This document shows, piece by piece, positions 1 through 346 of a stretch of 64,000 bases of DNA; position 1 is the stretch's first letter; each line of letters starts with the position of its first letter. The stretch lies in NCBI RefSeq assembly GCF_013167455.1, contig NZ_CP038328.1; one strand, written 5' to 3'. This stretch comes from Escherichia coli O157:H7 (GTDB lineage: Bacteria > Pseudomonadota > Gammaproteobacteria > Enterobacterales > Enterobacteriaceae). The position numbers were made by a program, and so were the translations under genes. The notes under the pieces were generated by a model. It was not told where the DNA came from, did not search any database, and saw only the letters and a list, made by a program, of their open reading frames with translations.

Positions 1-1
1 T

Positions 2-265
2 ATGGAACTTATTGCCCATCGTGATGCTCCAATCATTATGGCCGGAGCAGGAGTCCGTGCAGAAAACCTGCACCACTTCCTCGATGCCGGAGTGCTGGAA
101 GTCCATAGCTCCGCGGGAGCGTGGCAAGCCTCACCGATGCGTTATCGTAATCAAGGATTGTCCATGTCATCAGATGCACACGCGGACGAGTATTCGCGTT
201 ATGTCGTAGACGGGGCGGCGGTTGCTGAAATGAAAGGAATCATTGAACGCCATCAGGCCAAATGA
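2..265 (+). CDS. cutC: Copper homeostasis protein CutC, C-terminal 87 aa; 5' end lies upstream of the window
   Basis: ORF runs in from the window edge; translation recognised as CutC C-terminus; hairpin terminator follows. Confidence 0.85.
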
Positions 266-346
266 TTTTTACCGTTGCATCATGTCGCCCAATATGATGC
301 TTGCTCGTACCAGGCCCCTGCAATTTCAACAGGGGCCTTTTTTTAT
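40..346 (+). ncRNA. micL: MicL (RyeF) sigma-E-dependent sRNA embedded in the cutC 3' end; bounds approximate
   Basis: GGAACTT at 4..10, 17-nt spacer, TCCAA at 28..32 resembles sigma-E -35/-10; distance to the cutC terminator T-run (about 306 nt) fits the reported MicL length. Confidence 0.5.
312..345 (+). terminator. Rho-independent terminator of cutC/MicL
   Basis: Stem aggcccctg / caggggcct followed by a T7 run. Confidence 0.75.

Follow-up and report, generated by a model that had tools for sequence, protein, structure and literature searches.

The micL gene nested in cutC of an O157-type Escherichia coli retains the sigma-E promoter, processing elements and lpp seed of its K-12 counterpart

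The window, i.e. the whole 64,000-nt stretch of Escherichia coli DNA that was analysed, opens inside the 3' part of cutC with tatGGAACTTattgcccatcgtgatgcTCCAAtcatTatgg, and this portion of the gene hosts both a promoter of the sigma-E type and the first 228 nt of the small RNA (sRNA) MicL. A first-pass annotation had placed a sigma-E-like promoter within the last 90 codons of cutC, formed by a GGAACTT and a TCCAA motif 17 nt apart; the motifs and their spacing were read directly exactly as claimed (Table 1), and the open reading frame sets them within the last ~88 codons. MicL starts in the 3' part of cutC and runs as far as the cutC terminator, ahead of torY, and cutC, torY and torZ are annotated both in an identical O157 record and in MG1655. 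This is the arrangement of a 3'-UTR sRNA with an internal promoter, in which the promoter (4-32) lies in the cutC frame and one terminator (312-344) serves both transcripts.

Table 1. Features of the micL locus and of the remainder of the window (window coordinates except in the last row)
Feature	Position	Strand	Details
cutC 3' end	1..265	+	ORF 2..265; last 87 codons and stop TGA 263-265
Likely proximal UP-like element	1..3 plus 12 bases before window start	+	Upstream part read from the identical O157 locus
Sigma-E -35 motif	4..10	+	GGAACTT; encodes part of CutC Met-Glu-Leu
Promoter gap	11-27	+	ATTGCCCATCGTGATGC; 17 nt
Sigma-E -10 motif	28..32	+	TCCAA; consensus TCAAA/TCNAA; spans Ala-Pro-Ile codons
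Primary MicL transcript	37..344	+	308 nt; Rfam RF02654
RNase E site	260..268	+	AAAUG/AUUU; predicted cut 264/265, inside the cutC stop codon
MicL-S, processed active form	265..344	+	80 nt; full cutC 3' UTR; starts at last stop-codon base
Stem-loop A	274..304	+	Core stem 277-285 with 292-300; from fold
lpp seed	302..313	+	UGCUCGUACCAG; MicL-S +38..49; complementary to lpp coding nt +16..28
Stem-loop B, intrinsic terminator common to cutC and MicL	312..344	+	9-bp stem, 9-nt loop, U7
torY	begins 653		From ORF list
ES036 (CssrF) match	4280-4322	-	Rfam 45.5 bits; just downstream of torZ stop (4207), between convergent torZ and cmoB
naRNA4 match	14538-14613		Rfam 61.5 bits, just above threshold
SraC/RyeA	35640-35784	-	Rfam 175 bits; overlapping antisense to SdsR/RyeB
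SdsR/RyeB	35681-35780	+	Rfam 114 bits; pair matches K-12 ryeA/sdsR locus
cspA-thermoregulator match	51274-51734	+	Rfam 136.9 bits; over yobF-cspC, cold-shock-protein paralog, not cspA itself
micL (RyeF; b4717) in MG1655	1958441..1958747	minus	ncRNA annotated nested in cutC (b1874)

The identity of the sRNA was examined with the Rfam covariance model for MicL (RF02654), a check that the first-pass annotation had itself proposed and had named as able to overturn its assignment. The model matches the plus strand from 37 to 344 over its full length (model positions 1-308 of 308) with 373.7 bits and an E-value of 3.7e-114, against a gathering score of 56; it was the single match in a scan of the first 3 kb and was confirmed on the whole window. 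The distance from the predicted start to the cutC terminator had also been said to agree with the roughly 308 nt of MicL, and the span from 37 to 344 is exactly 308 nt. Alignment of positions 1-346 to the MG1655 micL/cutC locus, the second check proposed, returned 99% identity, with b4717 annotated at that place and 306 of the 308 MicL nucleotides the same. Relative to MG1655, MicL carries only two substitutions, A to C at 177 and A to G at 203, which also replace CutC residues (Glu by Ala and Ile by Val, respectively). Neither touches the promoter or MicL-S; they sit in the first 228 nt of the transcript, and MicL-S itself is 100% identical to MG1655. Many E. coli O157:H7 chromosomes match positions 1-650 at 100% identity, and strain PV15-279 is one of them. 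The locus was found in 5424 of 5426 complete E. coli genomes, and in 5305 of the 5426 positions 1-346 are present at >=99% identity.

Among the RefSeq E. coli records listed, a micL ncRNA feature is carried by MG1655 only, and the other records, O157 included, show cutC alone. The missing feature in the non-K-12 records is an annotation gap and the biology is no different; because those records list only cutC, analyses based on annotation will miss MicL in these genomes.

Beyond the micL locus, positions 1-64000 are colinear with MG1655 from 1,958,784 down to 1,894,886 on the reverse strand, at 98.6-98.9% identity, and are 99.93% identical to O157:H7 over the common parts. Judged by its sequence, the window is core chromosome of an O157-type strain, running from cutC to pabB. 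The only break in colinearity with K-12 lies at 14533-14613, a REP-like repeat in the znuB-ruvB spacer where K-12 is ~97 nt longer and where the naRNA4 match falls; it is probably a case of REP copy-number variation. In PV15-279 a ~44-kb Stx2a prophage (stx2AB, tRNA-Arg/Arg/Ile, integrase) sits in yecE, at a point equivalent to window ~7298-7320, and since yecE is uninterrupted in the window, with no tRNA genes, the attachment site is unoccupied in the source genome. PV15-279 was dropped as an annotation reference for the rest of the window because the window lacks this prophage, and colinearity with K-12 was used instead. The ES036 element found downstream of torZ is also present in Escherichia whittamii (L019 3381-3423, 61.4 bits).

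Within the 64 kb, the exact motif GGAACTT-N17-TCNAA occurs once on both strands together, against 0.04 expected from dinucleotide shuffles, a result that fits the promoter call of the first-pass annotation, and relaxing the gap to 15-19 nt still gives one match (0.18 expected from shuffles). Sigma-E-like motifs with one mismatch at 16789, 23713 and 51603 were dropped, their frequency being the chance rate. Rhodius et al. 2006 took GGAACTT, TCAAA and the start base as reference points for spacing in sigma-E promoters (PMC1312014); the gap between the -35 and -10 motifs is 15-19 nt, with 16 preferred, the discriminator is 5-6 nt, the two lengths are inversely related, and the distance from the -35 motif to +1 is 25-28 nt, mostly 26-27 (PMC1312014). 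The MicL gap of 17 nt is one over the preferred length, the discriminator is 4 or 5 nt depending on whether transcription starts at 37 or 38, and the -35-to-+1 distance is accordingly 26 or 27 nt, the preferred value. The geometry is therefore canonical, since the short 4-5-nt discriminator offsets the 17-nt gap. The UP sequences of sigma-E promoters are typically A/T-rich (PMC1312014); the bases immediately before the -35 motif, most of which lie upstream of the window, likely act as an UP element, and third-codon positions at -14, -5 and -2 in this upstream region are invariant in the ortholog comparison.

[quoted passage not shown] In K-12 both the 5' end and the sigma-E dependence of MicL were established by tiling array, Northern blot, primer extension and a GFP fusion (PMC4102768). 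Guo et al. and Rfam start the RNA at 37 (U), for a length of 308 nt, and RefSeq starts b4717 at the equivalent of 38 (A), for 307 nt; a start at 38 suits the purine preference of sigma-E better than the U at 37. The first-pass annotation had expected a 5' end near position 40, and of this the start inside cutC stands, with the exact base corrected to one or other of these mapped positions.

Promoter motifs that are wholly coding, here contributing to Met-Glu-Leu and Ala-Pro-Ile of CutC, could be a coincidence of codons, with the sRNA arising solely as an RNase E product of the cutC mRNA; the protein alone predicts some conservation of the motifs, and MicL-S can indeed also come from cutC mRNA by processing (Guo et al., PMC4102768). 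The conservation of the promoter was therefore compared across enterobacteria, with one genome per species scanned using a degenerate pattern for the seed and terminator only. Because the promoter lies ~270 nt upstream and was unused in selecting loci, its conservation is an independent test. The pattern identified 22 loci, in Citrobacter, Escherichia, Salmonella, Klebsiella, Raoultella, Lelliottia, Enterobacter, Pseudenterobacter and Huaxiibacter, a taxonomic range that agrees with Guo et al. (PMC4102768), and all ten orthologs submitted to Rfam were full-length MicL (88-369 bits, 308-367 nt). Conservation was counted for the window together with those 21 loci, representing 21 other enterobacterial species, whose upstream sequence was long enough. 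In this set GGAACT is invariant, with T or A at position 10, and so is TCCAAT (28-33), even though its third positions 28 and 31 are four-fold degenerate, whereas the equally coding 17-nt gap between the motifs diverges freely in both nucleotides and amino acids, retaining just 35-82% identity to the window in the 21 loci. Invariance extends to 11 of 12 motif positions vs 44% of other cutC positions, and to four of five third-codon positions in the motifs vs 11 of 103 (10.7%) elsewhere (Fisher p = 0.0012, an approximate value that counts species as independent when many are close Citrobacter relatives). Invariant third positions cluster in the region between -14 and +40 (9 of 15). This comparison of sequences shows selection acting on the promoter motifs within cutC. 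Coincidence would also have to place a motif expected 0.04 times per window 26-27 nt from a mapped 5' end, and K-12 experiments show that a minimal fusion spanning -65..+20 is induced by sigma-E and that MicL is almost lost when the promoter is mutated synonymously (PMC4102768). An accident of CutC codons is thus a very improbable account of the motifs, and a dedicated sigma-E promoter is the reading followed here.

The part of MicL that overlaps the CutC frame was also considered as RNA. RNAalifold on the MicL orthologs found almost no covariation (covariation term -1.12, compensatory pairs 3/56), and when the minimum free energy structure of the window MicL was followed across 22 sequences, nine pairs with double changes were seen vs 6-9 in slid controls. 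The coding 5' part is therefore unsupported as a conserved RNA structure, its covariation being no higher than that of the slid controls, and in K-12 it is dispensable for cleavage and lpp repression (PMC4102768; bioRxiv 10.1101/341578). The two substitutions relative to K-12 raise the question of whether MicL, present by descent, has had its function altered in this lineage by 177 A>C and 203 A>G. Both lie within the 308-nt form, and the change at 177 breaks one pair of a small Rfam-consensus hairpin (marked as non-canonical). Against this, both are confined to the 5' 228 nt that K-12 can dispense with and that lack covariation support, no difference from K-12 is seen in the promoter, RNase E site, stem-loops, seed, terminator or lpp target, and the Rfam score is essentially maximal. 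An altered function is accordingly given almost no credence, and the O157 copy of MicL would be expected to behave like the K-12 copy.

Both the single-sequence fold and the Rfam consensus contain a long-range helix in which positions 40-41 and 45-51 pair with 300-306 and 310-311, overlapping the lpp seed. Across 22 species this helix is 94.9% paired, with zero compensatory changes and ten broken cells. Full-length MicL could be a seed-occluded pro-sRNA that is activated by RNase E cleavage, which is considered unlikely; if true, it would add a post-transcriptional gate to the sigma-E response.

In K-12, RNase E processes MicL by cutting at AAAUG/AUUU. Hfq stimulates this cut and a neighbouring pair of 3' stem-loops (A and B) positions it, with stem-loop A setting where it falls (Updegrove et al., bioRxiv 10.1101/341578). 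The predicted architecture in the window comprises the same elements, i.e. an RNase E site at the cutC stop, two adjacent stable stem-loops and an 80-nt MicL-S, which folds with -28.8 kcal/mol (z = -5.15 vs shuffles). The terminator is a GC-rich hairpin of GGCCCCTG and CAGGGGCC followed by T7 at 313-344, with the fold placing the hairpin at 312-338 and the U tail after it; a Rho-independent terminator with a 9-bp GC-rich stem and U7 appears to provide the 3' end typical of Hfq-binding sRNAs. A generic terminator scan returned no plus-strand match near 313-344 because its loop limit of 8 nt is exceeded by the 9-nt loop, and direct folding shows the hairpin. Stem-loop B is invariant in 22 of 22 orthologs, which were themselves selected on the seed and terminator region.

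In three of the orthologous loci (L011, a Klebsiella MAG; L022, Raoultella terrigena; L025, Enterobacter sp. 10-1) the cutC stop is displaced, in the region corresponding to window 245-305, and 13-59 extra nt lie between the stop and the U-rich cleavage region. As a consequence of this intervening sequence, MicL-S no longer begins in the stop codon in these three. The same loci carry a U41>C change in the seed, which would convert a G·U wobble with lpp G25 to a G-C pair if lpp is unchanged there.

Guo et al. 2014 mapped the K-12 seed to nucleotides +38..49 of MicL-S, pairing with lpp coding nt +16..28, and found that a 4-nt mutation at MicL-S +41..44 abolishes lpp repression, which is brought back by a compensatory mutation in lpp (PMC4102768). 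The first-pass annotation named lpp as the repressed gene, which is consistent with the presence of the published seed at 302-313 and with its complementarity to lpp; the four nucleotides mutated by Guo et al. correspond to window 305-308. Paired with lpp +16..28, the seed forms 11 bp with one bulged U (-16.2 kcal/mol) over lpp codons 6-10. An RNAduplex run of the whole MicL-S against lpp, which ignores intramolecular structure, produced a long meaningless duplex and was replaced by this seed-restricted calculation with a shuffle control. The best duplex between the non-terminator part of MicL-S (1-50) and lpp -37..+102 begins at the same lpp position as the seed duplex, with z = -2.7 and an energy equalled in six of 1000 shuffles. 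This is only a modest advantage over shuffles, so lpp would not be picked out as the target on pairing energy alone; it is the compensatory mutation in K-12 that establishes lpp as the target. The lpp 5' region and coding sequence of O157:H7 strain PV15-279 are 100% identical to those of K-12.

Identity to MicL, the geometry of the elements, the complementarity of the seed and purifying selection on the promoter were read in the sequence here, and sigma-E dependence, the 5' end, RNase E cleavage, Hfq binding, lpp repression and the copper phenotype are taken from experiments in K-12. Since the expression data come from K-12, applying that 5' end, sigma-E control and processing to this strain is an extrapolation. 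Taken together, positions 1-346 are almost certainly the micL locus of an O157-type E. coli, working as in K-12 through the sigma-E promoter, MicL, MicL-S and lpp. Envelope stress would free sigma-E, which would start transcription at 37/38 inside the cutC frame, and transcription would stop at the cutC terminator (344) to give the 308-nt MicL. RNase E together with Hfq, guided by the two 3' stem-loops, would then cut at 264/265 to release the 80-nt MicL-S, in which the largely unpaired stretch joining the stem-loops (302-313) would pair with lpp codons 6-10 and block translation. The resulting fall in synthesis of Lpp, the most abundant outer-membrane lipoprotein, would relieve the envelope. 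A further regulator, NsrR, represses micL-lacZ via sigma-E according to a 2025 paper, which names no binding site in the micL promoter.

The closest comparison is with K-12 MicL itself (RF02654; Guo et al. 2014, PMC4102768), which has the cutC-torY locus, promoter, transcript start and length, RNase E site, both stem-loops, seed, terminator and lpp target sequence in common with the window copy and differs from it only at 177 and 203, in the 5' region that K-12 can dispense with. Enterobacteria have two further Hfq sRNAs under sigma-E control, RybB and MicA, which likewise possess a sigma-E promoter with the same consensus and similar strength and an Hfq-type terminator, and which repress abundant outer-membrane proteins to ease envelope stress. 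RybB and MicA, however, are genes that stand alone in intergenic DNA, act on many porins and have their seed at the 5' end, whereas MicL lies within a coding gene, undergoes processing, carries an internal seed between two hairpins and has lpp as its single known target. CpxQ is an RNase E-processed sRNA from the cpxP 3' UTR but is without its own promoter and so wholly dependent on the parent mRNA, in contrast to the dedicated sigma-E promoter of MicL. DapZ of Salmonella is a 3'-UTR sRNA with a promoter in the 3' part of dapB and a terminator common with the mRNA, as for MicL, although its regulator is HilD, its targets are opp/dpp and no processing is required.

The MicL feature is already known and there is nothing new at this stretch. 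Recognition of a nested sigma-E promoter and its sRNA from the raw sequence alone is the rediscovery of a textbook case, and as such it calibrates the first-pass annotation. The lesson of MicL is that a promoter and a regulatory RNA can sit hidden within a protein gene, and that the copper sensitivity of cutC mutants, which had been blamed on the protein, is really owed to the RNA.
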